Source of the DNA: Verrucomicrobiota bacterium
GTDB lineage: Bacteria > Verrucomicrobiota > Verrucomicrobiia > Limisphaerales > Palsa-1400
Length of the DNA: 57,016 nucleotides
Assembly: GCA_049510745.1 (NCBI GenBank)
Contig: JBEKYR010000033.1
Span: 1-57,016, forward strand
Direction: 5' to 3'
Part shown: in pieces, positions 30,001 to 45,216 of the stretch
Layout of the letters: every line of letters begins with the position of its first letter
Position numbering within the stretch: position 1 is the first letter of the stretch
The notes under the pieces: model-generated
What the model was told of the DNA's origin: nothing
The model's database searches: none
What the model saw: only the letters and a program-made list of their open reading frames with translations
Translations under genes and position numbers: made by a program

Positions 30001-30720
30001 GTCAAAAAAAGCGTCTGGATCGTCGGCGGCGACGGCTGGGCCTATGACATCGGCTACGGCGGGCTGGATCACGTGCTGGCCAGCGGACGCGATGTCAACG
30101 TGCTGGTTCTTGACACGGAAGTTTATTCCAACACCGGCGGGCAGATGTCCAAGGCCACCCCGCGCGGAGCGGTCGCAAAATTCGCCGCCGGCGGCAAGCC
30201 CGGCGTCAAGAAGGACCTGGGCCTCATCGCCATGGCCTGCGGCCAGGTCTATGTCGCCAGCGTGGCGATGGGCGCCAAGGACGATCAGACCCTCAAGGCC
30301 TTTGTCGAGGCGGAATCCTATCCCGGTCCGTCGCTGATCATGGCCTACAGCCATTGCATCGCCCACGGCATCGCGGTGGACGCCGGCGTCGGCGCCCGCC
30401 AGCAAAAGCTGGCGGTCGATTGCGGCCAGTGGCTCCTCTACCGTTTCGATCCGCGCCGGGCCGACCGGGGCGAAAACCCGCTGCAATTGGACTCCCCGCC
30501 ACCGAAGAGCGCCGTGCGGGATTATCTGCTTTCGGAAAACCGCTTCAAAATGCTGACCTTGAGCAAGCCCGACGCCGCCCGGCAGCTTTTCGCCCGCGCG
30601 CAGTCCGATGTCGAGAGCCGCCGGAGTTTTTACCAATTCCTGCAAAGCCGCAATCTCAAGGCGGAGGCCGCGCCGTCCGCGGGGCCTAAAACGTCCGCTG
30701 CGGCGGAGCCGGCCGCCTGA
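27082..30720 (+). CDS. nifJ: Pyruvate:ferredoxin (flavodoxin) oxidoreductase, homodimeric
   Basis: DGNEA, YPITPSS, MQSEGGAAG, GLGADGTVGANKN, two CxxCxxCxxxCP, FSGACAGCGETPY, GGDGWAYDIG, YSNTGGQ. Confidence 0.97.
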   Translation: MAAKKSSNGPLFATIDGNEAAAYVAFRTNEVMAIYPITPSSPIAEWCDQWASEGKRNLWGTVPAIVEMQSEGGAAGAVHGALQTGALSTTFTASQGLLLMIPNMFKIAGELLPSVFHVTARTVATHALSIFGDHSDIMAARSTGWAMLGAASVQETMDFALIAQAAALRASLPFVHFFDGFRTSHEVAKIQLVPDEAMRALMDVGLIAQGRVRAMTPDRPVLRGTAQNPDAFFQGREAANPAYAACPDIVQQVMDEFARHTGRSYKLFDYVGAPDAARVLVIMGSGAEVAQEAVEHLNRRGEKLGLVKVRLYRPFDSARFVQALPASVRAIAVLDRTKEPGAAGEPLYQDCVTALFEHRLGGPRPAAEMPVIVGGRYGLSSKEFTPAMVKAVFDNLAAPAPKNHFTVGITDDVSFTSLPVDAQFSTEPDDVIRALFYGLGADGTVGANKNSIKIIGENTPYCAQGYFVYDSKKSGSMTVSHLRFGQQPIRSSYLITRANFIACHQPLFLERYDMLRDLVPGGTFLLNSPFSREEIWPRLPTPVQQALLDCKARFFVIDATSVARASGMGGRINTIMQVCFFALSGVLPRDEAVAAIKESIKKTYGKKGDEIVQMNLKAVDNTLANLFEVPLPGHVNGAGELLPSVTPDAPPFVRDVLGKLAAGRGDDLPVSAFPRDGTFPTATAQYEKRNLALDIPVWNEAICIQCLKCVFICPHATIRAKVCEPARLEGAPATFKSAAARAPEWKGLRFVLQVAAEDCTGCALCVEVCPVRDKTENKRKALNVRPQAPLRLSERENWNFFLGLPELDRRKINTTLLRQQQVMQPLFEFSGACAGCGETPYLKLLTQLFGDRAIIANATGCSSIYGGNLPTTPYAKNADGRGPTWCNSLFEDNAEFGLGFRISLDKQRELAEELARKLAGPLGDDLVDALLKSSQADEAGIADQRARVAVLKQKLRGLDSPEARLLLSLADQLVKKSVWIVGGDGWAYDIGYGGLDHVLASGRDVNVLVLDTEVYSNTGGQMSKATPRGAVAKFAAGGKPGVKKDLGLIAMACGQVYVASVAMGAKDDQTLKAFVEAESYPGPSLIMAYSHCIAHGIAVDAGVGARQQKLAVDCGQWLLYRFDPRRADRGENPLQLDSPPPKSAVRDYLLSENRFKMLTLSKPDAARQLFARAQSDVESRRSFYQFLQSRNLKAEAAPSAGPKTSAAAEPAA

Positions 30721-30736
30721 ACCCGTTACCCCCCTT

Positions 30737-31747
30737 ATGGACCTGACTACCACCTATCTCGGGCTGAAGCTGCGCACACCGTTGGTCTGCGCGGCCTCGC
30801 CGTTATCGCAGCAGTTGGACAATCTCAAACGGATGGAGGATGCCGGCTCTTCGGCTGTGGTGTTGCATTCGTTGTTTGAGGAACAGTTGCGCCAGGACAC
30901 CCTCGAACTGGCGGGCAACGTTGAGCGCGGCACCTTCAGTTCGCCGGAGGCGCTGACCTACTTCCCGGAGCCGCCAGAATACAAACTGGGACCGGACGAA
31001 TATCTCGAGCACATCCAACGCGCCAAACAGACGGTGGGCATCCCGGTAATCGCCAGCTTGAACGCCTGCTCGCCGGGCGGGTGGACCCGCATCGCCCGCG
31101 GCATGCAGGACGCCGGCGCCGACGCGCTCGAGTTGAACATCTACCACATCCCCACCGACGCCAAACAAACCTCCGCCGACCTCGAGGCGATGTATCTGCA
31201 AATCGTGCGCGACGTGAATGCGGAAGTGACGATTCCCGTGGCCGTCAAATTAAGCCCGTTCTTCACCAATTTCTCCAACGTCGCCGCGCGGTTTGATGAC
31301 GCGGGCGCCGAAGGCCTGGTTCTGTTCAACCGGTTTTTCCAGCCCGACATCGACCTCGAAACACTGGAGGTGCGCCCGAATGTTTTGCCGAGCACGCCCA
31401 TGTCCATGCGGCTGCCGTTGCGGTGGATCGCGATTCTTTACGGCCGCGTGGCGGCCAGCCTGGCGGCGACCAGCGGCGTGTACGGCGGCGGCGACGTGCT
31501 CAAGCTGCTGCTGGCCGGCGCGGACGTTACCATGTTGTGCTCGGTGCTGCTGCGCGACGGCATCCGGCAGATCAGCGCCATCGAAGGGGACCTGGTTGCG
31601 TTGATGGAGAAGCACGAGTTCGATTCGGTGCGGCAGTTGAAGGGGAGCATGAGCCAGAAGAACTGCGCCGACCCATCCGCGTTCGAGCGCGCGCATTACA
31701 TGCGGGCGCTCACCAGCCCTATCGGGAAGCCGCCCGGACCGCCATAA
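30737..31747 (+). CDS. Dihydroorotate dehydrogenase-like FMN protein
   Basis: MDLTTTYLGL.L..P...ASP, SLFEEQ, IASLN, ELNIY, VKLSPFF, LFNRFFQPDID; lacks the SCP catalytic loop. Confidence 0.88.
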   Translation: MDLTTTYLGLKLRTPLVCAASPLSQQLDNLKRMEDAGSSAVVLHSLFEEQLRQDTLELAGNVERGTFSSPEALTYFPEPPEYKLGPDEYLEHIQRAKQTVGIPVIASLNACSPGGWTRIARGMQDAGADALELNIYHIPTDAKQTSADLEAMYLQIVRDVNAEVTIPVAVKLSPFFTNFSNVAARFDDAGAEGLVLFNRFFQPDIDLETLEVRPNVLPSTPMSMRLPLRWIAILYGRVAASLAATSGVYGGGDVLKLLLAGADVTMLCSVLLRDGIRQISAIEGDLVALMEKHEFDSVRQLKGSMSQKNCADPSAFERAHYMRALTSPIGKPPGPP

Positions 31748-31757
31748 AGCCCAACCC

Positions 31758-33785
31758 ATGATGCCCCAACTCACCACCTGCACTTTCTGTGGCACTGGCT
31801 GCGGCATCTATCTGGAAACGGCCGGCAACCGGATCGTCGGCGCCTATCCGAGCATGTCGCACCCCGCCAACAAGGGGAGGATTTGCGTCCGCGGCTGGCA
31901 CGTGCATGAAGTGGCCAGTTCCCCGGACCGCCTCACCAGCCCGTTGCTCCGCAAGAACGGCCAGTTCCAGAAAGTCTCCTGGGAGGAGGCCCTCGGCTTC
32001 GTCGCCTCGCGGCTCGGAGAAATCCGCGACCAATACGGCCCCGACTCGGTGGCGTTCCTGGATTCGCCCCGCTGCTCGAACGAGGAGGCCTACCTCCTGC
32101 AAAAACTGGCCCGCACCCTCATCGGCACCAACAACGTCGATCACGGCGCCGGCGTCTATTGCAACAATTCCATCAACGTCCTGCTCGACATGATCGGCGT
32201 TGCCGCGAGCACCAACTCCATCGGCGAACTGGCCCGCAGCGGGGTCATCATCGTGGACGGCGTTGACCTGGGCCGGCAACTGCCGACCATCGGCGGCTGG
32301 GTCATTCGCGCCAAACTCAACGGCGCCTGCCTCATCGTCGTTGATTCCCGCCGCCATCGGGTGGCGGAGAACGCCGACATTTTCTTGCAGATCAAACCCG
32401 GGACCGAATCCCTCCTTTACGGCGCGCTGGCCAAGGTCATCGTGGACCGCGGCCTGCTGAATCTGCCCTTCATCAAGGCCCGCTGCGAGGGCTGCGAAGC
32501 GTTTCTGGCGCGCGTGCGGGATTACGATCTGCGGCAGGCGGCCGAAGGTTGCGGCGTGCCGGCGGAGTTGATCGAGGCGGCGGCGCTGGCCTACGGCCGG
32601 GCGCAGAGCGCGGCCATCCTTTACTCGACCGGCATCGAAGGCCGCGAGGAGGACAGCATCCGCGGCATCATCAATCTGGCCCTGCTCACCGGCAACTTTG
32701 GCAAGGAAGGCGCGGGCGTGTTTCCCCTGACCGAGCACAATAATTTGCAGGGTGTATGTGACATGGGGATGTTGCCGGACCGGTTGCCGGGCTATCAGGC
32801 CGTCACCAATCCCAAGGCGCGCTCCGCGCTGGAAGGCCTCTGGCGGGCGACGCTTCCCGCCGCGCCCGGGGTGGGAGCCGACACGCTGTTCGCCGCCGGC
32901 GGGCACACGCCGCTGAAGGCGCTCTGGCTTGGGCGTTATGACCCCGTCAGCACGGCGTTTTTCGGCGACCCTGTCGAAGCGCTCCGCCGCTGCGAACTGG
33001 TCGTGGTGCAGCATTTGTTCATGACCGATTCCGCGGACTTCGCCGACGTGGTGCTGCCGACGACGCTCTTTGGCGAGGAACGCGTGACCTTCACCAGCAC
33101 GGAGAGACGGATTCAAATCGCCGAGCGCGTGATTGACCCGCCCGAGGGGCCGATGCCCGCCTGGGAACAACTGACCCGCCTGGCCCGCGCCATGGGCGCC
33201 AACTGGGATTATGCGTCCGCCGCGGAGGTCATGCAGGAGATCGGCCAGGTCATCCCCTTCTACAGCGGGGCCAGTCATGACAATCTCACGCGCGATTACG
33301 GCCGCCAATGGCCCTGCACCACCGACCGCCCCCTCGGCACCGCGCTCCTGTTTGCCGAAGAGGCAATGGAGCGGCCTTTCAAGTTTGTGCCCGTCGCCCG
33401 GCCGCCGAAACCGGCCGGAAATCCGGACGAATTCCCGTTCACCCTGGTCTTCGGGCAATCGCTCTACTACTGGCACCAGAATGTCCTCGTCAAGCACAGT
33501 GAAACCCTCAAGCGCGAATACCGTCTCTTGTTGCTGGATTATCCGAACGGCTTCGTTGAGATCAACACCGGCGACGCCGAGCGGTTGGGCATCCGCGACG
33601 GCGGCCGCATCCGGCTCAACACCGCCGGCGGTTCGCTGGCCTCCACCGCGCGGGTCACGCCCGAAGTGCGCGGCGGCACGGCGTTTGTTCCTTACTTTGT
33701 GCGGCAATTGAAACGGGAAATACTCGGCGCGACCGGCGGGGGCGGAGCGATCGTTCCGGTGCGCCTGGAAGCGGCGGGGTCGTGA
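31758..33785 (+). CDS. FdhF-like molybdopterin oxidoreductase family protein with degenerate active site
   Basis: CTFCGTGC...C [4Fe-4S] motif, DRL..PL, NEE.Y..QK..R..IGTNNVD, NLALLTGN.G..G.G, NNLQG.CDMG; catalytic motifs altered. Confidence 0.88.
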   Translation: MMPQLTTCTFCGTGCGIYLETAGNRIVGAYPSMSHPANKGRICVRGWHVHEVASSPDRLTSPLLRKNGQFQKVSWEEALGFVASRLGEIRDQYGPDSVAFLDSPRCSNEEAYLLQKLARTLIGTNNVDHGAGVYCNNSINVLLDMIGVAASTNSIGELARSGVIIVDGVDLGRQLPTIGGWVIRAKLNGACLIVVDSRRHRVAENADIFLQIKPGTESLLYGALAKVIVDRGLLNLPFIKARCEGCEAFLARVRDYDLRQAAEGCGVPAELIEAAALAYGRAQSAAILYSTGIEGREEDSIRGIINLALLTGNFGKEGAGVFPLTEHNNLQGVCDMGMLPDRLPGYQAVTNPKARSALEGLWRATLPAAPGVGADTLFAAGGHTPLKALWLGRYDPVSTAFFGDPVEALRRCELVVVQHLFMTDSADFADVVLPTTLFGEERVTFTSTERRIQIAERVIDPPEGPMPAWEQLTRLARAMGANWDYASAAEVMQEIGQVIPFYSGASHDNLTRDYGRQWPCTTDRPLGTALLFAEEAMERPFKFVPVARPPKPAGNPDEFPFTLVFGQSLYYWHQNVLVKHSETLKREYRLLLLDYPNGFVEINTGDAERLGIRDGGRIRLNTAGGSLASTARVTPEVRGGTAFVPYFVRQLKREILGATGGGGAIVPVRLEAAGS

Positions 33786-34873
33786 AGGCGCGCCTGGTTG
33801 ACCTCGCCGACGTTCTGAAGATCGTGGACCTGCTCCGCGCCCGCGCCTACGAGGTCATCGCGCCGTTCTGCGGGCGCGGGCGCGACAGCTACTTCGACAC
33901 CGTCACGGACGCGAATCGTCAGCGGGTGCAGATTCATTTGCCCAATCCGTACTACCCTCCCAAGCGTTTCGTCTTTCCGCACATCGAGCGCATGATGAAA
34001 GTCCGCGGGCCGAACGGCGCCATGAAAATTGAGCCGGCTTACGAGGAGCCCCGGCGCGCCCTCTTCGGCATCCGCTCCTGCGACGTGGCCGGGCTGTGGC
34101 ACCTGGACCGTTTCTATCTCGGCCGCGACTTCCGGGATGTCTATTACGAGAAGCGCCGCAAGAATCTCTTTTTGGTGAACATGGTCTGCACCGACCCGGC
34201 GCGCGACATCGGCGAGGACTGCTTTTGCCTGTGCGCCGACACCGGTCCGGCGGCCCGCGACCATTTTGATTTGCAGCTCATGGACCTGGGCGGCGGTGAA
34301 TTCATGGCCGTGGCCGGCACGCCCGCCGGCGAAGAACTTTTCTCCGAGCCGATTTTCCGCCAGGGCACGGCCGCGCATCTGGAACGCCGCCGCGCCATTC
34401 TGGCCGACGTGCGCAAGCAGTTCCGCACCACCACGAGCTGGTTTCCGGCCACCGTCCGCTATGTTTCGCAGGGCACGATCCTGGAAAAGACCTGGGAGGA
34501 AATCGGCAACCGCTGCCTGGAATGCGGCGGCTGCACTTATGTCTGTCCCGCCTGCACCTGTTTCACCGTTTCCGACCGCCAGGTGGGGCCGGAGGAAGTC
34601 GAGCGCGTGCGGATTTGGGATTCCTGCGGCCTGAGCGGCTTCACGCGCATGGCCGGCGGTTTCAATCCCCGGCGCGCGGTGCATGACCGCCGCAACCGCC
34701 GCCTCTTCCGCAAGCTGGCGCAGTACTTCATCGAGCGCGAATTGGCCATGGCCTGCGTCGGCTGCGGCCGTTGCGCCGCCGTTTGCCACGGCGACATCGG
34801 CATGCCCAGCGTGGTCGAAATGATCCGGCGCGCCGCGCCGGAGACAGCCCAAAATGAACCCGCCCGACACTGA
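33782..34873 (+). CDS. 4Fe-4S dicluster protein, AsrA / sulfhydrogenase beta-like
   Basis: FGIRSCD, C...CFC, W....RCLECGGCT.VCPACTCF, R.WDSC....FT.MAGG.NPR, CVGCGRC...C; GTGA overlap. Confidence 0.88.
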   Translation: MKARLVDLADVLKIVDLLRARAYEVIAPFCGRGRDSYFDTVTDANRQRVQIHLPNPYYPPKRFVFPHIERMMKVRGPNGAMKIEPAYEEPRRALFGIRSCDVAGLWHLDRFYLGRDFRDVYYEKRRKNLFLVNMVCTDPARDIGEDCFCLCADTGPAARDHFDLQLMDLGGGEFMAVAGTPAGEELFSEPIFRQGTAAHLERRRAILADVRKQFRTTTSWFPATVRYVSQGTILEKTWEEIGNRCLECGGCTYVCPACTCFTVSDRQVGPEEVERVRIWDSCGLSGFTRMAGGFNPRRAVHDRRNRRLFRKLAQYFIERELAMACVGCGRCAAVCHGDIGMPSVVEMIRRAAPETAQNEPARH

Positions 34874-35702
34874 AAACATTTATCTGCCGAAGCTGGCGGT
34901 CCTGGACCGGGTGGTGGACGACATCCCGGAGGTGAAGACCTTTTATTGGCGGTTCGAGGAGGAGGCGGCGCAGGCGCAGTTCAAACACTTCCGCCCCGGA
35001 CAATTCGCCCAGATTTCCGTCTTCGGCGTGGGCGAATTCCCGGCCTCCCTTCCCCCCAGCCCCACCGAGGAGGAAACCTTCTTCACCATCCGCCAGGTCG
35101 GCAGTTGCACCTCCGCGCTCCATCAACTCAAGCCCGGCGGCAAGTTCGCCGTGCGCGGCCCTTACGGCAATGGTTTTCCGATGCAGGATTACGCCGGCAT
35201 GAACCTCACCTTCGTCGCCGGCGGCATCGGCCTGATTCCCTTGCGTTCCTGCATTGTCTATGCGCTCGATCACCGCGCGCAATACGGGCGCATCCAGGTT
35301 TTTTACGGCGCAAAAACCCCCGGCGAACTGATGTACCTGCCCGATTTGCGCGCGTGGGAAAAGTCCGGCGCGATGGAGTGTCACCTCACGGTGGACCGCG
35401 CCGCCAACGGCTGGAACGGTCACGTCGGCGTCGTCGGCAGTCTTTTCCAGAAGAGCGGCGTGGACGTGCCGGTGGACAACACCATCGCCTTCGTCTGCGG
35501 CCCGCCGGTCATGTTCCGCTTCGTCATCAAGGACCTGCTCGCCCTCGGTTTCAAGGAGCGCCACATCGTCTCCACGCTCGAGCGTTACATGAAATGCGGC
35601 GTGGGCAAGTGCGGCCATTGTTGCATCGGCGTCGCCTATATCTGCGTGGACGGTCCTGTGTTCACCTACGAACAAATCAAAAAACTTGGGGAGGACATCT
35701 GA
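34854..35702 (+). CDS. FAD/NAD(P)-binding [2Fe-2S] protein, AsrB / sulfhydrogenase gamma-like
   Basis: PGQF...S..GVGE.P.S, VRGPYGNGF, AGGIGL.PLRS, CGPP.M, LER.MKCGVGKCGHC......C.DGPVF. Confidence 0.92.
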   Translation: MNPPDTENIYLPKLAVLDRVVDDIPEVKTFYWRFEEEAAQAQFKHFRPGQFAQISVFGVGEFPASLPPSPTEEETFFTIRQVGSCTSALHQLKPGGKFAVRGPYGNGFPMQDYAGMNLTFVAGGIGLIPLRSCIVYALDHRAQYGRIQVFYGAKTPGELMYLPDLRAWEKSGAMECHLTVDRAANGWNGHVGVVGSLFQKSGVDVPVDNTIAFVCGPPVMFRFVIKDLLALGFKERHIVSTLERYMKCGVGKCGHCCIGVAYICVDGPVFTYEQIKKLGEDI

Positions 35703-36190
35703 TGGCCGGCTTGCGCGAACAAATTCAGTCCTCTCTTCGCGGCCGCGTCTGTTTCATGGGCCTGGGCAACGTGGACGGCGGCGACGACGGCTTTGGGGTG
35801 CGGCTGGCGGAAGCGCTCGCCCGCGCCGGGGTGCCCGACGTGGTCATCGCCGCAACCGCCCCCGAGCAACTGGCCGGCCGTTGTGTTGACAATGGGTTCG
35901 ACCATCTGGTCTTCCTCGATGCCGTGGACTTCGGCGCCGCGCCCGGCTCGGTGGTCTTCCTGAATTCACGGGAAATGGCCGCGCGCTTTCCACAGATTTC
36001 CACGCACCACATTTCGCTGGGAATGCTGGCGAAGTACGTTGAAACCGGCGGACGTTCGCGGGCCTGGCTCCTGGGCGCGCAACCGGCGTCCTTGAAACCC
36101 GCGACCGCGCTTTCGCCCGCCATCCGTTCGACGCTGGACGTCCTCGCCGAACTGATGGCCAGCGTCGTGAGCGAGGGAATTGCAACATGA
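35702..36190 (+). CDS. hycI: Hydrogenase maturation endopeptidase, HycI-like
   Basis: GLGN...GDDGFG, APE, DAVDFG..PG, STH..SL, LG.QP; TGATG coupling. Confidence 0.85.
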   Translation: MAGLREQIQSSLRGRVCFMGLGNVDGGDDGFGVRLAEALARAGVPDVVIAATAPEQLAGRCVDNGFDHLVFLDAVDFGAAPGSVVFLNSREMAARFPQISTHHISLGMLAKYVETGGRSRAWLLGAQPASLKPATALSPAIRSTLDVLAELMASVVSEGIAT

Positions 36191-38115
36191 TGACTCCCGA
36201 ACAGGCGGTCTTCGCGTCCATCCTCCTCTGCCTCGCCGGCGCGGTGCTGACGTTGCTGGCCGCGCGGAACCGGACGCTGGCGGGCTGGCTCGCCTTTTTG
36301 GTGACCGCTGCGACTGCGGCGCTGATCTTCTCCGCCGTGGCGACGGTGCTGGCGGGCGGCGCTTCCGCCCGCTCCAAAGAGTTTTGCGCCCTGCCGGCCA
36401 TCGGTTTCGGCCTGCGCCTGCACGTGGACGGATTGACCGCGCTGTTCCTGATGCTGGCGGCGTTGATCGCCGTGCCCGCTTCGTTTTATTCCATCGCCTA
36501 CATGAGGCATTACCGGGATTATGGCGTCGCCCGGTATTATCCTTATTTCCTTTTGTTCCTGGCGGCGATGTACGGCCTGCTCAGCACGACGGACATGATG
36601 TGGTTCTTCCTTATTTTCTGGCAGATGATGACGCTGCCCGGCTACGCGCTCATCCGTTTCGAGCACAAAATACCGGGCAACATTCGCGCGGCCAACAAAT
36701 ATCTGCTGATGATGCAAATTGCCTGCGCGGCAACCCTCATCGGCGCGGAGATTCTGGCCGACGCGGGCGCGTCCGCAAATGCGGGCGGCGGAGTGAAGTA
36801 CGACTTCGACACCGTGAGCGCGGGTCTGCCGGTGTTGTTGCACACGCGGCCCGTCCTTACGGCGCTGGCGTTCGGGCTGTTCCTGGCGGGTTTTGGCATC
36901 AAGATGGGCATGTGGCCCTTCGGGCAGATCTGGCTGCCGGACGCGCACCCGGCGGCGCCATCGCCGGTGAGCGCGATGCTTTCCGGAGTCATGATCAAGA
37001 CCGGGGTGTATGGCCTCATGCGCTGTTTCCTGTGGCTCGTGCCGGCGGAGGCGCAGGCCGGCTTTCCCCTGGCGCGCTGGGGTTTGGTGGTGGCGGTGTT
37101 CGGGACGATCTCGCTTTTCACCGGGACCATGCAGGCGCTCAAGCAGGAGCAGACCAAGCGCCTGCTCGCGTTCCACAGCATCGGCCAGGTCGGCTACATC
37201 CTGCTCGGTTTGGGGGCCTGCATGGCATTGCTGCCGGCCGCGGGACCGGAGGCCGCGGCGCTCGCGGCCCTGGGCATGACCGGAGCGCTCTTTCACACCC
37301 TCAATCACGGCGTTTTCAAGGCGCTGCTCTTCCTGAACGCCGGCTCCATGCTCCACGCCACCGGCACGCAGGACCTGAACAAAATGGGTGGCTTGCTCAA
37401 ATACATGCCTCTGACGGCCGCCACGGCGCTGGTGGCTTCCCTGTCCATTTCAGGCGTTCCGTTGTTCAACGGCTTCGCCAGCAAATGGAGCATTTACGTG
37501 GCGGCCGTGCAAGGAGGCGGCGTGGCCGGCTATCTGCCCGTCTGCGCCGCCATTGCCATCCTCACCAGCGCGCTGACCCTGGCGTCGTTCGTCAAGTTTT
37601 TTGGCGCAAGTTTCCTGTCGCGGACGAGCGCGATGGTGAAGGAGAAGGCCGCCGGCCGGCGCCGGCTGGAGGTCGGCATGACGATGCAAATTCCCCAATT
37701 GTTCCTGGCGCTGATCTGTCTGCTGCTGGGGATTCTGCCGGCCATTGCTTATGGCCTGATTCTGAGGGCGCTGGCGGCCAGTCCCCATGGTTTTGGCCAG
37801 GCCCTCGGCGGCGCTTTGCCTCTGCCCGAAAACCTCTGGGCCGGCCTCTCCGGCTTCGAGTCGCGTTCGGTTTTCGTTCCGCTCGCCTTGGTGGCCGTCC
37901 TTGGGCTGGCGTTTCTTGTGGCCCGGTTTATTTCGAAGTTGGGTGCCGCGCCGCGCCGCGCTGCGGTTCCCTGGCTGTGCGGTTACGCGCGCGAAGCGGA
38001 ATGCAACCGTTATGTGGCGCACGGCTTTTACGGCGAGATCAAGCGTTATTTCCGATGGCTCGGCGGCGCGCCCGTCCCGCCGGCGGCGAAACCCGGCGAC
38101 CTGAAGGAACACTGA
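36187..38115 (+). CDS. Group 4 hydrogenase antiporter-like membrane subunit (HycC/HyfB/NuoL-M family)
   Basis: KMG..P...WLPDAHPAAPSPVSAMLSGVMIKTGVYG, KRLLAFHSI, NH..FKALLFL.AG, G.P..NGF.SKW, W.CGY. Confidence 0.92.
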   Translation: MMTPEQAVFASILLCLAGAVLTLLAARNRTLAGWLAFLVTAATAALIFSAVATVLAGGASARSKEFCALPAIGFGLRLHVDGLTALFLMLAALIAVPASFYSIAYMRHYRDYGVARYYPYFLLFLAAMYGLLSTTDMMWFFLIFWQMMTLPGYALIRFEHKIPGNIRAANKYLLMMQIACAATLIGAEILADAGASANAGGGVKYDFDTVSAGLPVLLHTRPVLTALAFGLFLAGFGIKMGMWPFGQIWLPDAHPAAPSPVSAMLSGVMIKTGVYGLMRCFLWLVPAEAQAGFPLARWGLVVAVFGTISLFTGTMQALKQEQTKRLLAFHSIGQVGYILLGLGACMALLPAAGPEAAALAALGMTGALFHTLNHGVFKALLFLNAGSMLHATGTQDLNKMGGLLKYMPLTAATALVASLSISGVPLFNGFASKWSIYVAAVQGGGVAGYLPVCAAIAILTSALTLASFVKFFGASFLSRTSAMVKEKAAGRRRLEVGMTMQIPQLFLALICLLLGILPAIAYGLILRALAASPHGFGQALGGALPLPENLWAGLSGFESRSVFVPLALVAVLGLAFLVARFISKLGAAPRRAAVPWLCGYAREAECNRYVAHGFYGEIKRYFRWLGGAPVPPAAKPGDLKEH

Positions 38116-39813
38116 ATGATTGCGCGCGAAAAACTGGATCAATTGGAGGCAAGGTTCGGCCCCGTCATCCGGCGGGCCGATCTCCCCTCCGATCGCTGCC
38201 TGTTCGTTTTCGTGGAAGCCTCCGCGTTGAAGACGGTGTGTCGGCACGTTTTTCGCGAGCTGGATGCCCGCTATGTCACCAGCATTGGCGCCGATGACCG
38301 GCCCTTCTCCGGCTCGTTCCTGGTGGCGCACAATTTCGCGTTTGATCGCGACCACCTGCTGTGCGGCATCCTGGCGGACATTCCCGCCGGCGATCCCCGC
38401 GTGGACAGCATCTCGGACGTCGTGCCGCCGGCGAATTGGGCCGAGCGGGAATTGCGCGATCTGGTGGGCATCGAACTGGCCGGACATCCCTATCCCAAGC
38501 GCCTGGTCCTGCCGGACGGCTGGCCGGAGGGCGTCCACCCGCTGCGGAAGGACGTTCCCTGGAATTTTGTGCCCGCCGGTTTCGATGACGAACGCGAATT
38601 CAAGTTCGACGACCCGCCCGAGGGCTGCACGGTCGTGCCTTTCGGCCCGTTTCATCCCACCCTCGATGAACCCGCCCACTTCCGCCTTTACGTGGAAGGC
38701 GAGCGGGTGCGCGGGTGCGAATACCGCGGCTTCATGGCCCATCGCGGGATCGAGAAGCTCGCCGAATCCGTGCTCAGCTACAACGACATCCCGATCATGG
38801 CCGAGCGCATCTGCGGCATCTGCGGCTGCGTGCATAATGTCGCCTACGCGCAGGCCGTGGAAAGTGCCGCCGCCTTGCAGGCCCCGCCGCGCGCGGAGTA
38901 TCTGCGCACCATCCTGCTGGAACTCGAGCGCCTGCACAGCCATCTCCTCTGGGTCGGGCTGGCCTGCCACATCGTGGGTTTTGACACGTTGTTCATGCAA
39001 TGCTTCCGCATCCGCGAACCGGTCATGTGGGTCGCCGAGAAAATCACCGGCAACCGCAAGACCTACGGCCTCTGTGTCATCGGCGGCGTGCGGCGGGATT
39101 TGACGGATGAGTTGAAGGCCGAGCTGCAACAGGTGCTCGCCCGTCTCGAAACGGAATGGCGGACAGTGACCGGCGCGGTGTTCAAGGACCGGAACATCCA
39201 GCAGCGCACCCGCGGGGTCGGCGTCGCCGACCGCAGGCTCGTCAAGGAGGCGGCGCTCATCGGACCGGTGGCCCGCGCGGCGGGCGTGGAGATCGATTGC
39301 CGCCGCGATCATTCCTACGCCGCCTATGACCGCGTGGCCTTCGAGGTCATCACCGCCGCCGACGGCGACGTCTGGTCGCGGCTGGTGGTGCGGGCGCGCG
39401 AAGTGTTCGAGTCAATCAAAATCATCCGCCAATGCCTCGACAAAATGGAAAGCGGTCCGGTCCAGTTGGCGCTCAAGGACGAATTGCCCGTCGGCCGGAT
39501 GGGATTGTCCTCCGTCGAAGCGCCCCGCGGGGAGTGCCATCACTTCGTCATCACCGGCGAGGCCAACCGGCCGCGCCGCTGGCGGGTGCGGGCGCCCACC
39601 TATCAGAATCTGCAGGGTGTCCCGGCGATGATCAAGGACCAGCAACTGGCGGACATGACGATTACGCTGGGCAGCATCGACCCGTGTTTCTCCTGCACCG
39701 ACCGGCTCGAAACCATTGACATCAAATCAGGCGGAGTCAAGGTCTGGTCGCCGGAGGAACTGCTCAAACTGGGGCGAGCCAAGAAAACGGGAAGTTGGCT
39801 GATTTGGCATTGA
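38116..39813 (+). CDS. hycE: Group 4 [NiFe]-hydrogenase large subunit (HycE-like NuoC+NuoD fusion)
   Basis: W.ERE..DL.G....GHP...RLVLP..WP....PLRKD; L1 ERICGICG; L2 DPCFSCTDR followed by a cleavable tail. Confidence 0.92.
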   Translation: MIAREKLDQLEARFGPVIRRADLPSDRCLFVFVEASALKTVCRHVFRELDARYVTSIGADDRPFSGSFLVAHNFAFDRDHLLCGILADIPAGDPRVDSISDVVPPANWAERELRDLVGIELAGHPYPKRLVLPDGWPEGVHPLRKDVPWNFVPAGFDDEREFKFDDPPEGCTVVPFGPFHPTLDEPAHFRLYVEGERVRGCEYRGFMAHRGIEKLAESVLSYNDIPIMAERICGICGCVHNVAYAQAVESAAALQAPPRAEYLRTILLELERLHSHLLWVGLACHIVGFDTLFMQCFRIREPVMWVAEKITGNRKTYGLCVIGGVRRDLTDELKAELQQVLARLETEWRTVTGAVFKDRNIQQRTRGVGVADRRLVKEAALIGPVARAAGVEIDCRRDHSYAAYDRVAFEVITAADGDVWSRLVVRAREVFESIKIIRQCLDKMESGPVQLALKDELPVGRMGLSSVEAPRGECHHFVITGEANRPRRWRVRAPTYQNLQGVPAMIKDQQLADMTITLGSIDPCFSCTDRLETIDIKSGGVKVWSPEELLKLGRAKKTGSWLIWH

Positions 39814-39838
39814 TTTTTGGGATGGCCCATGATATTAT
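39810..39838 (+). promoter_or_regulatory. sigma70 promoter of vapBC (leaderless)
   Basis: TTGATT(39810)-17 nt-TATTAT(39833), 7 nt before ATG 39846; flanked by TGGCAT/ATGCCA inverted arms. Confidence 0.7.
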
Positions 39839-39845
39839 GCCATAT

Positions 39846-40121
39846 ATGACGACGCAACTGACGATTGACAGCGCTGGACGTATTGTTCTGCCCAAGCCGA
39901 TACGGAAGGAATTGGACATTGGCCCCGGTGACTTGCTGGAGTTGGAAAATGTCGGCGAACGCATCACCCTTCGCCCGGTTCGCGGCGGGGCGCCGCTCGC
40001 CAAGGAAAAAGGCGTGTGGGTCTTCCGCACCGGCCAGCCTTTGGCGGCTTCCGTTACCGATGATCTGCTGGAACAAATTCGGGGGGAGCGCGACAAGCAG
40101 AATCTCGCCACACTCGAATGA
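39846..40121 (+). CDS. vapB: AbrB/MazE/SpoVT family antitoxin
   Basis: TIDSAGRIVLPKPIRKELDIGPGDLLEL.......I.LRP; ATGA overlap with the PIN gene. Confidence 0.88.
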   Translation: MTTQLTIDSAGRIVLPKPIRKELDIGPGDLLELENVGERITLRPVRGGAPLAKEKGVWVFRTGQPLAASVTDDLLEQIRGERDKQNLATLE

Positions 40122-40543
40122 AGGCATTTTTGGATACGTCGGTGCTGGTTCCGGTTTTTTACGGCGACCATGTGCATCATGCCGCCAGCTTGGACCTCTT
40201 CACCAAGTTTCCCCAAAAGGATGTTTGCTGCGGGGCGCATAGTCTCCTGGAGGTGTATTCCACGCTGACCCGGATGCCCGGCAAGCATCGCATCAGCAGC
40301 GAGCAGGGGATGCTTTTCATCACCAACATTCGGGAGCGGCTGACCATTGTGACGCTGAGCGCAGACGATTACGGGGATATGCTCCAAAAATTCACGTCCA
40401 TCGGCATTGTGGGCGGCGCCATCTACGACGCTTTGCTGGCCACCTGCGCCCTCAAGGCAAAAGCGGAAACGCTCTTTTCTTGGAACATCCGCCACTATGG
40501 GCAATTCGGCCCGGAGGTGACGCGCATCCTAAGGACGCCGTGA
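40118..40543 (+). CDS. vapC: PIN domain ribonuclease toxin
   Basis: FLDTSVL, E.YS.LTR, IYDAL...CA, L.SWN..HY. Confidence 0.88.
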   Translation: MKAFLDTSVLVPVFYGDHVHHAASLDLFTKFPQKDVCCGAHSLLEVYSTLTRMPGKHRISSEQGMLFITNIRERLTIVTLSADDYGDMLQKFTSIGIVGGAIYDALLATCALKAKAETLFSWNIRHYGQFGPEVTRILRTP

Positions 40544-40571
40544 CGTGTGCGCCATATCGAGTCGTTGCTAA

Positions 40572-40595
40572 ATGGAGTTTGACTCTCAACTCCAT
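40572..40595. repeat. 8-bp inverted repeat after vapC
   Basis: ATGGAGTT-tgactctc-AACTCCAT; no U-tract follows. Confidence 0.6.
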
Positions 40596-40635
40596 GACAT
40601 TCTGCAATCGGCGAATTTATCGGTGAAGGACTTAT

Positions 40636-41562
40636 ATGAATCGTGAGCTGATATGGAGGATTGCGGGCGGGCTGGCCAACGTTGGCGCGGTCCTGCTCGT
40701 TGCGCCGTTCTGCGAAGGGTTGCTGCGGAAGGTCACGGCGCGCCTGCAATCGCGCCGGGGACCGCCCCTCTGGCAGCCCTACATTGACCTGCTCAAGTTG
40801 CTCGGCAAGGAGGACATTGAATCGGGCGAATCGCCGGCCCTGCAGCGGTTTGTCGCCTGGCTCTCGCTGGCGGCGGTCTTGACGGTCGCCTGCCTGGTGC
40901 CGATGGGTTTTCCCGCGCCCATGAACGGGGCGGGCGACGTGATTCTGCTCATTTACCTGCTGACCCTGTGCGGCATTGGCACGTTGCTCGGCGGACTGGC
41001 GGCGGGCTCCACTTATTCGCTGCTCGGCATCGGGCGCGAGATGATGGCGATGATCGCCCTGGAACCGTTGTTTGCCATCGCCCTTCTCGTCGGCGCGGTT
41101 CATGTGGGATCGTTCCGGCTCGACGCCGTCTTGAACGGCTCGGTCTATGCGGCGGCGGGCATTCCGTGGTCGGGTCTGATCCTGCTGGTGGTGATGGTGC
41201 TCTCCTTTCAGGCGTTTGTGCAACGGGTGCCCTTTGACATGTCCGCGGCGGAGACGGAAATCATGGAAGGGCCGTTGATGGAATACTCCGGTCCCAAGCT
41301 GGCCCTGTTCAAGTACGCGCAAATGGCGCGGCTGGTCATTCACAGCGGGTTATTCGTCGCGCTGTTTGCGCCCTGGGGATCGGGACTGGCCTTCCCGCTG
41401 GGCTGGCTGCTGTTCTGGGCCAAAGTGCTGGCGTTGGTGCTGCTGGTGACGGTCGTCGCCGCGACGCATGCGCGCTACCGGATTGACCAGGCCATTCGTT
41501 ACTTCGCCGGATTGCTGGCGGTGGCGTTCGCCGCCCTGGCGCTGGCGGGTTACGGACACTGA
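40636..41562 (+). CDS. hycD: Group 4 hydrogenase membrane subunit (HycD/NuoH family)
   Basis: G..RKV.AR.QSR.GPP..QPY.DL.KL..K, R.PFD...AE.E...G...EYSG..LAL. Confidence 0.9.
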   Translation: MNRELIWRIAGGLANVGAVLLVAPFCEGLLRKVTARLQSRRGPPLWQPYIDLLKLLGKEDIESGESPALQRFVAWLSLAAVLTVACLVPMGFPAPMNGAGDVILLIYLLTLCGIGTLLGGLAAGSTYSLLGIGREMMAMIALEPLFAIALLVGAVHVGSFRLDAVLNGSVYAAAGIPWSGLILLVVMVLSFQAFVQRVPFDMSAAETEIMEGPLMEYSGPKLALFKYAQMARLVIHSGLFVALFAPWGSGLAFPLGWLLFWAKVLALVLLVTVVAATHARYRIDQAIRYFAGLLAVAFAALALAGYGH

Positions 41563-41575
41563 TGGAGACACGTTC

Positions 41576-42100
41576 ATGTCCATGATGAGCAAATTCAAAG
41601 AAGCGATGGTCGGCCTCAAGGCCGGCTGCGTGACCCTGGATTATCCGGCGCAACCGCGGCCCGTGGCGAAGAACTTCCGCGGCCGGCCCATCTTCGATGC
41701 CCAAAAATGCATCGGCTGCGCCGGCTGCGCCAACAACTGTCCGGCGCGCGAAATCCTCGTCTTCGATGTCTGCCAGGAAATTCGCATCCTGAAATACCTG
41801 GGCCGGCGTTGCACCTACTGCGGACGCTGCGCGGAGGTTTGCCCGGAGAAGGCCATCACCATGAGCCAGGAGTTCGAGACGGCCACCGACAAAATCGGCG
41901 ACCTGCGGCAGCGGCTGGATTTGTTTATGAGCACCTGCCAGCGGTGCGGACGTTGTTTCAAGGAAAGTTCGCCGCTCGAACAGTTGAAGCTCAAGGGCTA
42001 CCGCTTTGATGATCTGGACAACGAACGGTGGATTTTCCGCTCCCGCGCCTACCTGGAAAGCGAGCCGGTGGTGGATGACATCAAGATCGAACTGGACTGA
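41576..42100 (+). CDS. hycF: Group 4 hydrogenase 2x[4Fe-4S] subunit (HycF/NuoI family)
   Basis: T..YP........FRG.P, CIGCAGCANNCP, CTYCGRCAEVCP, extra CQRCG. Confidence 0.9.
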   Translation: MSMMSKFKEAMVGLKAGCVTLDYPAQPRPVAKNFRGRPIFDAQKCIGCAGCANNCPAREILVFDVCQEIRILKYLGRRCTYCGRCAEVCPEKAITMSQEFETATDKIGDLRQRLDLFMSTCQRCGRCFKESSPLEQLKLKGYRFDDLDNERWIFRSRAYLESEPVVDDIKIELD

Positions 42101-42106
42101 ACCGCG

Positions 42107-42643
42107 ATGCTGAAGAATCTTTGCCAGAAAATGTTCGGACGGTCGCTGTGGGTTTACCACGCCAACAGCGGCGGCTGCAACGGCTGCGACATCGAGGTGC
42201 TCAACGTGCTCACCCCCTACTATGACGTCGAGCGTTTCGGCATCAAGCTGGTCGGCTCGCCAAGGCATGCGGATGTGATGCTTTGCCAGGGGCCGGCCAT
42301 GCGCGCCACCGCCCGCGCCTTGCGGTGCGCCTACGACGCGATGCCGGCGCCGAAGCTGGTCTTTGCCATCGGCGGCTGCGCCTGCGGCGGCGGCATCTGG
42401 CACGACTCCTACCCGGTGCTCGGTCCGGTGGAAAAAGTCATCCCGGTCAACTTTTACATTCCAGGCTGTCCGCCCCGGCCTGAAGCCATCATCTTTGGCG
42501 TGGCGGTGGCTGTCGGGTTGGTGGACAAAAAAGTGGCGCCGGTCGAGTTCAAGGAACTGGAGCTGCCCATTCCGCGCTACCACCCGGCTGACCTGCGCGG
42601 CCGGGGTGAAATGGTGGTTTACGAAAAAGCGGAGAAGATTTAG
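42107..42643 (+). CDS. hycG: Group 4 [NiFe]-hydrogenase small subunit (HycG/NuoB family)
   Basis: GGCNGCDIE, YDVERFG, SPRHAD, GGCACGGG, IPGCPPRP. Confidence 0.92.
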   Translation: MLKNLCQKMFGRSLWVYHANSGGCNGCDIEVLNVLTPYYDVERFGIKLVGSPRHADVMLCQGPAMRATARALRCAYDAMPAPKLVFAIGGCACGGGIWHDSYPVLGPVEKVIPVNFYIPGCPPRPEAIIFGVAVAVGLVDKKVAPVEFKELELPIPRYHPADLRGRGEMVVYEKAEKI

Positions 42644-42647: not shown

Positions 42648-42995
42648 ATGCACGAGTATTCGATCATGCAAAGCGCGCTCCATCAGGCCTTGCGCGAAGC
42701 CCGGCTGGCCGGGGCCGCGCGGATCCATGAAATCCGGCTGCGCATCGGGGTCCTCAGCGGTGTCGTGCCCGACGCGCTCCGGTTCGCGTTCGAGGTCCTC
42801 ACGCCCGGAACGGCCGCCGAAGGCGCGCTGTTGACGATCGAGGAGGTGCCGGCGCGATTCTGGTGCGCCACGTGCCGCCGGGAGTTTGTCTCCGCCAATT
42901 TGTTTGCCGAGTGCCCCGATTGCCGCAATCCCAGCAACGAACTTCGCGCCGGCCGGGAACTGGAATTAAGCTCAATGGAGGTGGACCATGTGTAA
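42648..42995 (+). CDS. hypA: Hydrogenase maturation nickel metallochaperone HypA
   Basis: MHEYSI, G.LSGV...AL.FAF, CATC...CPDC, G.EL. Confidence 0.95.
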   Translation: MHEYSIMQSALHQALREARLAGAARIHEIRLRIGVLSGVVPDALRFAFEVLTPGTAAEGALLTIEEVPARFWCATCRREFVSANLFAECPDCRNPSNELRAGRELELSSMEVDHV

Positions 42996-43806
42996 CGAAT
43001 GCGGCTGCGGTTTGTCCGCGGGAGCGCCGGTGACCGTTTCCGGCCATGACCACCCTGCCCCTGGCGCTCACGAGCACCTCCACGATCATCCGCACCATCA
43101 TCATTCGTCCGAACCCGGCGCGGAAGAACACCAGACGCTGGACTTGCGGCGCGCCATCCTGGAGAAGAACGACCGCCTGGCCGAGCGCAACCGCGGCTTC
43201 TTCCGGGCGCGCGGGATTCTGGTCCTCAATGTCCTCTCCTCTCCCGGCTCGGGCAAAACGACCCTCATTCGCGAAACCATCCGCCGGCTCGGCCCGCGCC
43301 TGAAAACGGCCGTCATTGTCGGCGATCTGGCCACCGACAACGACGCCCGCCGCCTGCGCGATTCCGGCGCGCCGGTCGTTCAGATCAACACCGGCACCGT
43401 CTGCCATCTCGAAGCGGACATGGTGGCCCGCGCCTGGAAGCAACTGGACACGGCCAAGCTGGACCTCCTCATCATCGAGAACGTCGGCAACCTCGTCTGC
43501 CCGGCCAGCTATGATTTGGGCGAGGACCTGCGCGTCGTGCTCTTGTCCGTCACCGACGGCGAGGACAAGCCGCTGAAATATCCGCCCGTATTCCACACTG
43601 CCCACGCCGTCATCATCAGCAAGGTCGATCTGGACCGGGCCTGCGACTTCAACCGCGAGGCGGCGACGGCCAATATCCGGCACATCGCCCATCACGCGCG
43701 GTTGTTCGAGATTTCCGCCAAGGCCGGCACCGGGATGGATGACTGGTGCGACTATCTGATCCGGCAGCACGAAGCCGTGAAAGGGCGCGACCCGCTGGCT
43801 TCGTAG
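42988..43806 (+). CDS. hypB: Hydrogenase nickel incorporation GTPase HypB
   Basis: MCNECGC, His-rich linker, SSPGSGKT, CHL, ENVGNLVCPA, GEDKPLKYP. Confidence 0.96.
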   Translation: MCNECGCGLSAGAPVTVSGHDHPAPGAHEHLHDHPHHHHSSEPGAEEHQTLDLRRAILEKNDRLAERNRGFFRARGILVLNVLSSPGSGKTTLIRETIRRLGPRLKTAVIVGDLATDNDARRLRDSGAPVVQINTGTVCHLEADMVARAWKQLDTAKLDLLIIENVGNLVCPASYDLGEDLRVVLLSVTDGEDKPLKYPPVFHTAHAVIISKVDLDRACDFNREAATANIRHIAHHARLFEISAKAGTGMDDWCDYLIRQHEAVKGRDPLAS

Positions 43807-43894: not shown

Positions 43895-44362
43895 ATGCGA
43901 GTGAAAAGTTCACGGCATTCGAAAATCACTGGTGACTTCGGTGAATCAATTGTACTGTATCTGCTGTCTCGACACGGCTTCGAATGTGCCCGGGTTGATC
44001 ACACAGGAATTGATCTGATAGCGCGGCGACCAAATTCCCGCGAGGTGCTCGGGATTTCGGTCAAGAGTCGAAGCCGTGAGGCTGGGACTGAAAACACACA
44101 CCTCGCATTGCCGCATGAAGGCTTTGACAAAGCCAAGGCCGCGTGTGATGCGTTTCACTGTACTCCTTTCTTTGCGCTCGTCATTGATGCTGGCGAACGG
44201 ATACGCGTGTTCCTGCTTTCACTCCGTCATTTGCAGAAGCTATTTCCGGGTGGGCGTAAAGTTTCGGCATGGCAGATGTCCGATAGGTTTTTGAGGAAGT
44301 ATTACGCTGACCCGCAAATCAATATCTTTGAGTTCTCAGCGCATGCTCAAAAGTGGTTTTAG
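43895..44362 (+). CDS. PD-(D/E)XK superfamily nuclease-like protein
   Basis: G..GE..V...L...GF.......IDLIA.......ISVKSR resembles the Hjc/YraN/restriction endonuclease core. Confidence 0.7.
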   Translation: MRVKSSRHSKITGDFGESIVLYLLSRHGFECARVDHTGIDLIARRPNSREVLGISVKSRSREAGTENTHLALPHEGFDKAKAACDAFHCTPFFALVIDAGERIRVFLLSLRHLQKLFPGGRKVSAWQMSDRFLRKYYADPQINIFEFSAHAQKWF

Positions 44363-44544
44363 GCGGATAACTTCGAATGTACCCTCAGACCTCCTCGTCA
44401 TGGGAGATGTGGCGAAAGCCGAGTATGAGTGCTGGGCTCAGTTCGTCACCATTTTCAAGCATTTACCGAAGTACAATGACAAGAAAAACGCGACGAAGTT
44501 CGGGCAGTCGCCGTCATAGGGTCAAACCGGAATGGCGTAGGGGA

Positions 44545-45179: not shown

Positions 45180-45186
45180 TGCCGGG

Positions 45187-45216
45187 AAGTTAGCGTATTT
45201 GTGAACTTGCTGTCAA
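45187..45216 (-). promoter_or_regulatory. sigma70 promoter of higBA (leaderless) with inverted repeat
   Basis: Minus strand TTGACA-18 nt-TAACTT, 7 nt before ATG 45179; AAGTT(45187)/AACTT(45204) arms. Confidence 0.6.

Follow-up and report, generated by a model that had tools for sequence, protein, structure and literature searches.

The stretch of DNA analysed here (57,016 nucleotides of contig JBEKYR010000033.1 from Verrucomicrobiota assembly GCA_049510745.1; henceforth the window) carries on its forward strand a cassette of nine genes. An FdhF-like gene (fdhL) and two genes resembling asrA and asrB precede a set of hyc genes for a membrane-bound group 4 [NiFe] hydrogenase (Table 1). The original prediction had proposed, from the letters of this segment, a hydrogenase akin to formate hydrogenlyase (FHL) that would exchange electrons with NAD(P)(H). 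All of its open reading frames (ORFs) were confirmed and its five junctions proved exact: a GTGA overlap between fdhL and asrA, a 20-nt overlap between asrA and asrB, TGATG between asrB and hycI, ATGA between hycI and hycC, and a 0-nt gap between hycC and hycE. The four overlaps and the gap all lie in the first half of the cassette. The genes it named stood, as did its count of a single antiporter subunit. It had left out hycI, the gene between the TGATG and ATGA junctions, which couples asrB to hycC translationally, and an AbrB/VapC pair that interrupts the cassette between hycE and hycD.

Table 1. Genes of the cassette, the inserted pair and the adjoining hyp genes (positions in the window).
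Feature	Position	Strand	Length (aa)	Basis of assignment
fdhL, pseudo-FdhF	31758..33785	+	675	TIGR01591 552 bits (< 666 cut-off), alignments with solved formate dehydrogenases
asrA-like / SHI-beta (HydB)-like Fe-S protein	33782..34873	+	363	NF040829, NF040833, TIGR02910, PDB 9NEZ_B
asrB-like / SHI-gamma (HydG)-like FAD/[2Fe-2S] protein	34854..35702	+	282	PRK08345, PF00175, PF10418, 9NEZ_C
hycI, hydrogenase maturation endopeptidase	35702..36190	+	162	TIGR00072 89 bits (> cut-off), PF01750
hycC/hyfB-like single antiporter subunit	36187..38115	+	642	PF00361, best NCBIfam match HyfB
hycE, fused NuoC/NuoD-type group 4 [NiFe] large subunit	38116..39813	+	565	7Z0S_E E=3.5e-122
AbrB/MazE-type antitoxin, inserted	39846-40121	+		PF04014
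VapC PIN toxin, inserted	40118-40543	+		PF01850, TIGR00028
hycD, NuoH-like membrane anchor	40636..41562	+	308	PF00146, alignment with HycD/HyfC
hycF, NuoI-like 2x[4Fe-4S] subunit	41576..42100	+	174	PRK12387
hycG, NuoB-like small subunit	42107..42643	+	178	PF01058
hypA, nickel insertion	42648-42995	+		translation
hypB, nickel insertion	42988-43806	+		TIGR00073

Conservation and phylogeny of the cassette

A scan for FdhL with one genome per species gave 171 confirmed stretches, the best 80 of which are referred to below as the related loci; a second set, anchored on HycE in metagenomes, comprised the best 80 of 307 loci. The related loci span eight phyla or lineages (Verrucomicrobiota, Acidobacteriota, Planctomycetota, Armatimonadota, Nitrospirota, Methylomirabilota, Omnitrophota and a metagenome-assembled genome (MAG) of Geobacteraceae), and the closest FdhL relatives among them come from Verrucomicrobiota MAGs, several labelled Limisphaerales. 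At all 80, whichever cassette genes are present stand in the same order as in the window. The complete nine-gene collinear cassette was found at 53 and another 22 are cut by the end of the locus; hycC is missing from its place at three, whose genomes carry a 64-69% identical copy elsewhere (G040, G251, G252), and there is a break after hycE at two. Viewed from the hydrogenase end, fdhL, asrA and asrB lie upstream in 38 of the 39 metagenome loci having at least 4.6 kb of sequence on that side. The neighbourhood survey called for by the original prediction thus found the arrangement conserved far beyond chance, in both search directions and across phyla. FdhL carriers made up 24 of 201 sampled genomes of the window's order (a sample at least 90% complete), a search of a Nitrospirota class gave matches in 8 of 54, all from the window's clade, and a plasmid collection held no large subunit more than 41% identical to HycE, with its 4a-type proteins reaching 40% at most. 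Carrier MAGs originate from wetland, peat, aquifer and digester.

A more distant version of the cassette was met in Armatimonadota. HycE matches were present in 54 of 251 genomes, three at 71-78% identity and the rest at 46-51%. Of 20 regions fetched from 56 such matches, one (L189) falls in the window's clade and 19 form a distant sister group, in which fdhL, asrA and asrB lie upstream in 18, the remaining one being cut by the contig end. HyfE is encoded in 16 of these 19 loci and at least three antiporters in 15, with a single antiporter in two (L184, L190); two of the 19 have in-frame TGA at both N-terminal Ni ligands. A maximum-likelihood tree was built from 40 large subunits (14 of the 80 related loci, the window, the 20 fetched regions, E. 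coli HycE and HyfG, and three outgroups from the window's own genome). Support was 100/99 for the window's clade, 98/97 for the sister group and 100/99 for HycE with HyfG, the latter branch holding two 4a rows only. The phylogeny that had been suggested as a check therefore sets the window's large subunit on a branch of its own, separate from HycE/HyfG. Its join to the Armatimonadota group reached 88/42 only, in a tree whose outgroups are long branches and which leaves the sequences of Takano et al. (see below) outside.

The hycE and hycD genes of the window, 822 nt apart, are uncoupled. The gap holds the AbrB/VapC pair (39846-40543), which is preceded by a promoter-like site of its own (39810-39838), has zero matches among the 80 related loci and lies outside the conserved cassette; the same gap is shorter than 310 nt in 58 of 60 relatives' loci. 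In the closest relatives this junction resembles an insertion hot spot: the gap measures 741 nt in locus L002, a different small gene pair, toxin-antitoxin-like by eye, occupies it in L006 (18062-18642), and the operon is broken after hycE in L001 and L070 (after 18057) and in several metagenome loci. A terminator scan gave no excess over shuffles (23 vs 20.6). Downstream of the cassette, hypA and hypB are found mainly in close relatives; HypD is present in the window's own genome.

The FdhF-like subunit and molybdenum cofactor genes

FdhL has one [4Fe-4S] site (C8, C11, C15, C43). In alignments with solved formate dehydrogenases (FDHs), the motif NVDHCARLCH reads NVDHGAGVYC and PLRGQNN reads PLTEHNN, with Tyr134 at the position of the Mo ligand, Cys135 at that of the catalytic His and Thr325 at that of the Arg. 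All 74 full-length homologues examined have the four cluster cysteines, and 72 have Tyr for the Mo ligand; at the Arg position, every one of the 74 has Thr, Ala or Ser in place of Arg. The same residue states were seen in the metagenome set, and the ten sister-group sites that aligned well all lack the Cys/Sec-His pair. A basic residue is retained beside the cluster, where Arg45 stands for Lys. For a wider comparison, 150 FdhF-like cluster representatives were assembled, of which 141 were aligned; in 72 of them the site reads Cys and then His or Gln. Conservation of at least 80% among these 72 singled out 119 positions, and the FdhL family keeps 87 of them and loses 32, including N170D, H175L, G326E, G393R, D419H, K441E, G443V, R567, H647F and N654; several of the losses are invariant swaps of Gly for Glu or Arg. 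From the structure of E. coli FdhF, we take most of the lost positions to belong to the walls of the pterin and guanine pockets. The fold is retained in the AlphaFold2 model of FdhL (mean predicted local distance difference test, pLDDT, 77.9), which is uninformative on the pocket since it is precisely in the Fe-S domain and in the cofactor loops that pLDDT falls below 50. On these residue states FdhL is best described as a pseudo-enzyme lacking the catalytic residues, not a formate dehydrogenase.

A few neighbouring cases were noted along the way. The other 69 of the 141 aligned FdhF-like representatives, many of about 900 aa, are without the Cys/Sec-His(Gln) pair, a count that may include a few nitrate reductases or misaligned sequences; dead FdhF homologues thus seem far more varied than the FdhL family alone. 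Two apparent natural FdhL-AsrA fusions (P0121, P0122) were rejected as frameshift mosaics with out-of-frame stretches, and P0123 is a distant AsrA-AsrB fusion.

The genome to which the window belongs (5.6 Mb, 94% complete) gave no full-length match to MobA and no match to FdhD or pyruvate formate-lyase. It does have MoaA and MoeA. Its best NTP-transferase match is MocA-like and adjoins genes that by eye resemble the xanthine dehydrogenase family, which would account for MoaA and MoeA, and the only other PF00384 match lies in the nuo operon. We surveyed 50 carrier genomes, corresponding to 50 of the 80 related loci and selected in most cases because the cassette was complete. In 24 there was no match to MobA, in 20 none to MoaA and in 17 none to either, as against one for HypD, an imperfect control given its possible linkage to the cassette. 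Of the 24 genomes without MobA, 22 have at most two PF00384 matches. Among 23 other carriers at least 90% complete, a set of related genomes that partly overlaps the 50, MobA was unmatched in 11 and MoaA in 7, all seven also without MobA. The cassette thus occurs independently of the genes for the molybdenum cofactor (Moco).

These data bear on the possibility that FdhL is an active Mo or W enzyme with an unusual ligand, for instance Cys135, and that the complex is a formate hydrogenlyase or oxidises some other substrate. The fold is retained, a Cys stands one residue from the ligand position, MoaA and MoeA are encoded in the genome, and a peat study interpreted as formate-coupled a group 4b cluster with a 'formate dehydrogenase' that may or may not be this cassette (PMC9599518). 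Cys135 as a shifted ligand was nevertheless rejected: it is kept in only 51 of the 74 homologues and replaced in the other 23, and over the genome and metagenome sets many homologues have Ser, Arg, Thr, Asn or Gly there. With the pocket residues lost as well, and neither moaA nor mobA detected in 17 of 50 carriers and 7 of 23 high-completeness carriers, we consider an active enzyme extremely improbable. Residue tallies, pocket losses and gene survey agree with the earlier view of a degenerate FdhF in a complex that formate does not drive.

Electron input, membrane arm and energetics

The hydrogenase core is intact, as had been claimed. HycE has both Ni motifs (RICGIC and DPCFSC; ligands C233, C236, C524 and C527) and a C-terminal extension predicted to be cleavable, a HycI-type protease being encoded in the cassette. 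The four cysteines are kept in 58/58 genome-derived homologues and in 79/79 and 78/78 metagenome homologues. HycE is 38% identical to E. coli HycE and HyfG, and HycG 45% identical to HycG and HyfI. With both CxxC motifs and with small, NuoI-like, NuoH-like and antiporter-like subunits, the complex belongs to the group 4 [NiFe] hydrogenases. The features of group 4a are missing, as there is neither a catalytic FdhF nor a HycB/HyfA linker and the large subunit branches elsewhere. The cassette is real and conserved, is not a formate hydrogenlyase and lies outside group 4a.

In the place of HycB the cassette has a pyridine-nucleotide module. The best solved matches of AsrA and AsrB are the beta and gamma subunits of Pyrococcus furiosus soluble hydrogenase I (SHI; 9NEZ_B, E=1.4e-34, and 9NEZ_C, E=1e-57). 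Sixteen cysteines of AsrA, probably sufficient for at least three clusters, are invariant in 71/71 homologues, and the [2Fe-2S] motif of AsrB is kept in 70/70. At the position that contacts the 2'-phosphate, AsrB has Asp181 (TVDR), which is Asp in 70/70 homologues and in 18/18 of the sister clade, and which aligns opposite a Thr of the NADPH-using SHI-gamma. We take Asp181 to be equivalent to D239 of cytochrome b5 reductase and S223 of ferredoxin-NADP+ reductase (FNR). Exchange D239T turned the former from NAD to NADP, and S223D moved the latter from NADP towards NAD (PMC5817062). From the invariance of Asp181, the Thr of SHI-gamma and these published swaps, AsrB is predicted to prefer NAD(H) over NADP(H). 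The proposed exchange with NAD(P)(H) is in this way upheld as to the module and refined as to the nucleotide.

No HycB-like match longer than 100 aa was found in 180 loci searched, and the window's own genome has no close HycB, only weak matches outside the cassette (25-28% over long stretches). According to the ORF list and family scans, the cassette contains no AsrC and no group 3b alpha or delta gene (AsrC was not searched genome-wide). The absences stated in the original prediction are therefore borne out, and of the SHI/Asr systems the cassette has the beta/gamma (AsrA/AsrB) module without its catalytic partner. HycF, for its part, is without the second Cys pair of the E. coli CxxC...CPxC metal site and has a CxxCxxC (C121, C124, C127) invariant in both clades. 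Since the E. coli site sits at the contact with HycB and FdhF (PMC9474812), its remodelling fits a changed partner, which falls short of proof. HycF C66 occurs only in the window's clade, and HycG has extra Cys6 and Cys60 clade-wide (49/49); these extra cysteines may serve an additional metal site or cluster.

We also weighed whether FdhL, AsrA and AsrB are a soluble unit in their own right, acting with an Hdr/MvhD system (Flx-Hdr-like) or another partner and only co-regulated with the hydrogenase. The Flx-Hdr family is marked by co-location with hdrABC and an MvhD-like flxC. FlxA and FlxB are, we assume, AsrB- and AsrA-like, an hdrCBA-mvhDGA set lies 3 kb downstream of the cassette as a separate operon on the opposite strand, and hdrB directly precedes fdhL at 7 of the 80 related loci. 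The link to the hyc genes is the only conserved one, however, hycI and hycC are translationally coupled to asrB, and the lack of any close HycB match in loci or genome would leave the Hyc core without a HycB-type input if AsrAB were taken away. We hold this arrangement to be very improbable.

The membrane arm departs from that of its relatives at one residue. Gln146 of HycC aligns with the Glu of transmembrane helix 5 (TM5) of E. coli HycC (Glu135), HyfB, HyfD and HyfF, and the position is Gln in 58/59 genome and 52/53 metagenome copies. TM5 Glu has been called strictly conserved, E. coli HycC having lost the partner Lys, and no clear path from HycC to the P-side was found (PMC9474812). In the TM5/TM7 pair, then, the E. 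coli protein keeps Glu and has lost Lys, whereas the window's protein keeps Lys and has Gln for Glu. All 52 sister antiporter genes keep the Glu, as do the single-antiporter sister loci, so that antiporter loss does not force the change. The E-channel acids of HycD are largely kept. At 37950-38115 of the window, HycC keeps the W-x-C-G-Y loop and is without the final hydrophobic helix of E. coli HycC. Among L008, L028, L029, L052, L067, L080 and L088-L090, some loci have hycC in tandem duplicate, the readable copies keeping TM5 Gln, and in G040, G251 and G252 the gene is on its own at a distance from the cassette.

Energetic estimates were made for pH 7 and 150 mV. Transfer from NADH to H2 at 1 Pa H2 was computed to yield between -2.7 kJ/mol (E' -280 mV, a figure from PMC9304861) and -10.4 kJ/mol (-320 mV), and each ion would cost 14.5 kJ. 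As an NADH-fed enzyme could not afford ion export, an uncoupled arm is plausible, and from the one residue and this arithmetic ion pumping is likely to be weak or absent. The ion translocation originally proposed is weakened by the loss of TM5 Glu in the sole antiporter and by this energy shortfall.

A fully ion-coupled NAD-linked enzyme seems quite unlikely to us. With the usual group 4 polarity it would run backwards, ion influx driving the reduction of NAD+ from trace H2, export tied to NADH-driven H2 evolution being unaffordable. Conservation of the HycD glutamates and of the remaining charged residues on the antiporter axis speaks for such an enzyme. So does the sister clade, where the same input module is mostly combined with at least three antiporters and HyfE and where TM5 Glu is kept throughout. 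From these sister-clade features a coupled form probably exists in the wider family. The window's clade, in contrast, has one antiporter type, no HyfE and TM5 Gln.

Taken together, and with slightly better than even confidence, we favour a reversible NADH:H2 membrane-bound group 4 [NiFe] hydrogenase carrying a cofactor-free FdhF relic and pumping ions weakly or not at all. The loss of catalytic residues in FdhL argues for exchange between NADH and H2 rather than with formate. The assembly, cofactors, nucleotide preference, direction and coupling that we infer would be as follows. The cassette proteins likely form one complex, in which electrons would pass from NADH to the FAD and [2Fe-2S] cluster of AsrB, to the Fe-S clusters of AsrA, standing in HycB's place, and on through HycF and HycG to the Ni-Fe site of HycE. 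FdhL, comparable with the C-terminal part of NuoG in complex I, would carry one [4Fe-4S] cluster and otherwise be a scaffold free of cofactor; it may lie off the path or be a docking site for ferredoxin. HycC and HycD would anchor the arm and feed substrate protons. For a fermenter this could be a redox valve that disposes of NADH as H2 as long as partners keep the H2 pressure within a few to tens of Pa, and that reduces NAD+ at higher H2.

Several points weigh against this reading. NADH-driven H2 evolution is uphill above about 3-60 Pa H2, which limits that direction. The nucleotide preference hangs on one residue, Asp181. The strong conservation of FdhL (60-89% identity) exceeds what a passive relic might require. 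Most carrier genomes are MAGs and related to one another, so that the absences of Moco genes are neither certain nor independent. HycC keeps K239, K271, H370, H374, K378 and K433, invariant or nearly so, and hycC is duplicated in some loci and retained in others when outside the cassette; ions could thus be pumped by a changed route. In E. coli, substitution E135A in HycC left H2 production unlowered and coupling by FHL-1 is disputed (PMC9474812), so that one residue leaves coupling unsettled.

An AlphaFold 3 model of a related cluster, the wire of which branches to the Fdh-like protein and favours a third substrate (PMC13582414, available text), also tells against it and has led to a three-way scheme for related group 4b clusters. 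Applied here, NADH through AsrB and a low-potential donor (ferredoxin reduced by pyruvate:ferredoxin oxidoreductase (PFOR), or another substrate) through the [4Fe-4S] cluster of FdhL would jointly drive H2 evolution and possibly ion export. The conserved cluster ligands of FdhL (74/74) and the basic residue beside them would suit such an enzyme, and the additional CxxCxxC of HycF could be its branch point. In the window a PFOR gene adjoins the cassette, and the genome gave no match to FeFe hydrogenase or Rnf/Nqr for the electrons of NADH and ferredoxin. The cassette, on the other hand, encodes no HdrA-, NfnB-, EtfAB- or HydBC-type subunit, and AsrB belongs to the flavoproteins of FNR/PyrK type, none of which is known to us to bifurcate. 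PFOR is adjacent at 6 of the 80 related loci, all with FdhL at least 75% identical, and was rejected as a fixed partner; the ferredoxin link raised by the original prediction loses weight accordingly. The equivalent cluster of complex I, N7, is moreover off the path (PMC9474812). We regard confurcation as unlikely.

A broader proposal, possible though doubtful in our view, is that the complex I design was independently rebuilt in a family of group 4 hydrogenases linked to NADH, with a coupled form that has several antiporters and a streamlined form uncoupled through the Glu-to-Gln change. FdhL might then admit electrons from ferredoxin, giving confurcation in the absence of a classical bifurcating flavin. 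In this two-state scheme coupling would have been switched off in the streamlined form because NADH gives too little driving force.

Relation to known systems and neighbouring genes

The combination of genes, offered as a candidate new complex, had already been reported from sequence. In Saganbacteria RX5A/RX6A, a group 4 hydrogenase termed 'enigmatic' was described by Matheus Carnevali et al. (2019), who left its function undetermined (PMC6349859, Supplementary Note 5). As given there, it shares with the cassette an unclassifiable molybdopterin-oxidoreductase homologue with one Fe-S domain, asrA and asrB beside a group 4 hydrogenase, and differs in having Mrp antiporters, a ferredoxin resembling CooF, and NuoC and NuoD homologues as separate proteins. 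Takano et al. (2026) studied one group 4b subclade in silico and found Cys/Sec to be absent from about half of its Fdh genes, which co-occur with SHI-gamma and SHI-beta homologues; from the AlphaFold 3 model they propose bifurcation among H+/H2, NADP(H) and an unknown substrate (PMC13582414). Their clusters share with the window the dead FdhF, the SHI-beta/gamma module and the fused HycE-type large subunit. The typical one has HyfE, several antiporters and several ferredoxins, whereas the window's clade has one antiporter type, TM5 Gln and neither HyfE nor HycB; the prediction made here is of NAD(H), with FdhL free of cofactor. Our sister group resembles their subclade in phylum, gene content and TGA-bearing Ni motifs, while the window's clade shows about 50% HycE identity to that group and forms its own branch; a place for the latter clade inside the published subclade is no more than a possibility. 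The names 'Verrucomicrobiota' and 'Omnitrophota' are absent from Table S1 of PMC13582414.

The general type has thus been noted in silico, and the window's variant is uncharacterised. Figures or supplements of the two key papers may show closer clusters. The accessible part of 10.1101/197269 holds nothing specific on the cassette, and the literature searched, with most subscription journals beyond reach, yielded no biochemical study of this type. The present analysis adds the survey of Moco independence, the NAD(H) prediction and the Gln/Glu contrast between the streamlined and multi-antiporter clades.

Among characterised enzymes, E. coli FHL-1 (FdhF-HycBCDEFG, group 4a, 7Z0S/7Z0T) shares the single antiporter with a NuoH-like anchor, the fused large subunit with HycI processing, HycF and HycG, at 31-45% identity per subunit; the window's complex differs in having no FdhF catalytic site or Moco dependence, AsrA/AsrB for HycB and a remodelled HycF site. 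P. furiosus SHI (group 3b) is a soluble enzyme with alpha and delta subunits of its own that uses NADP(H). With complex I (NuoEFG input) the cassette has in common an NADH flavoprotein and a relic molybdoenzyme without cofactor, both set on a core of NuoB/C/D/H/I type that bears an antiporter arm. Complex I has a quinone acceptor and NuoF FMN, unlike the H+ at a Ni-Fe site and the FNR-type FAD here, and the likeness is one of parallel assembly, not membership. In HydDB, characterised group 4 enzymes use formate, CO or ferredoxin with no NAD-linked subgroup listed, and group 4b is defined by a formate or CO donor module plus an Mrp Na+ module (PMC5037454, as far as available). The cassette contains no active Fdh, carbon monoxide dehydrogenase gene or Mrp set.

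If NADH-linked, the complex would extend the complex I superfamily by a new kind of input and offer a present-day analogue of a hydrogenase core gaining an NADH module and a NuoG-like relic. Its sister clades, one with Glu and several antiporters, the other with Gln and one, make up a natural experiment on TM5 Glu and antiporter number in redox-ion coupling, a matter still disputed for E. coli FHL. In communities that harbour carriers, the database label 'formate dehydrogenase' on the dead subunit likely leads to overestimates of formate metabolism and hides an H2 route.

Upstream of fdhL, the window encodes an acyl-CoA synthetase/acetyltransferase fusion, PFOR (TIGR02176) and a PRK07565 dihydroorotate-dehydrogenase-like flavoprotein (24302-31747). 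These genes run into fdhL with gaps of 17, 16 and 10 nt and could, with the cassette, form one transcript for conversion of pyruvate to acetate, ATP and H2, in this lineage only (6/80). At 5 of the 80 related loci a soluble-hydrogenase large subunit is found upstream. The Hdr set mentioned above is a complete hdrC-hdrB-hdrA-mvhD-mvhG-mvhA-protease operon (46930-54025, minus strand) that faces the cassette and specifies a group 3c-like hydrogenase with Hdr; its Mvh-type large subunit (47490-49037) is the only other PF00374 match in the genome. Elsewhere in that genome there are a second hdrABC/mvhD set (contig C4), an Ehr-type complex without Ni ligands (C17:42300-51448) and a second complex I-like cluster beside a second PFOR (C2:162600-177691). 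Finally, a stretch of lower GC content lies 3' of hypB (43895-46652), with ORFs that by eye resemble a small nuclease (43895-44362), a RelE/HigB-like and helix-turn-helix pair (44545-45179, minus strand) and a secreted repeat protein (45423-46652, minus strand).

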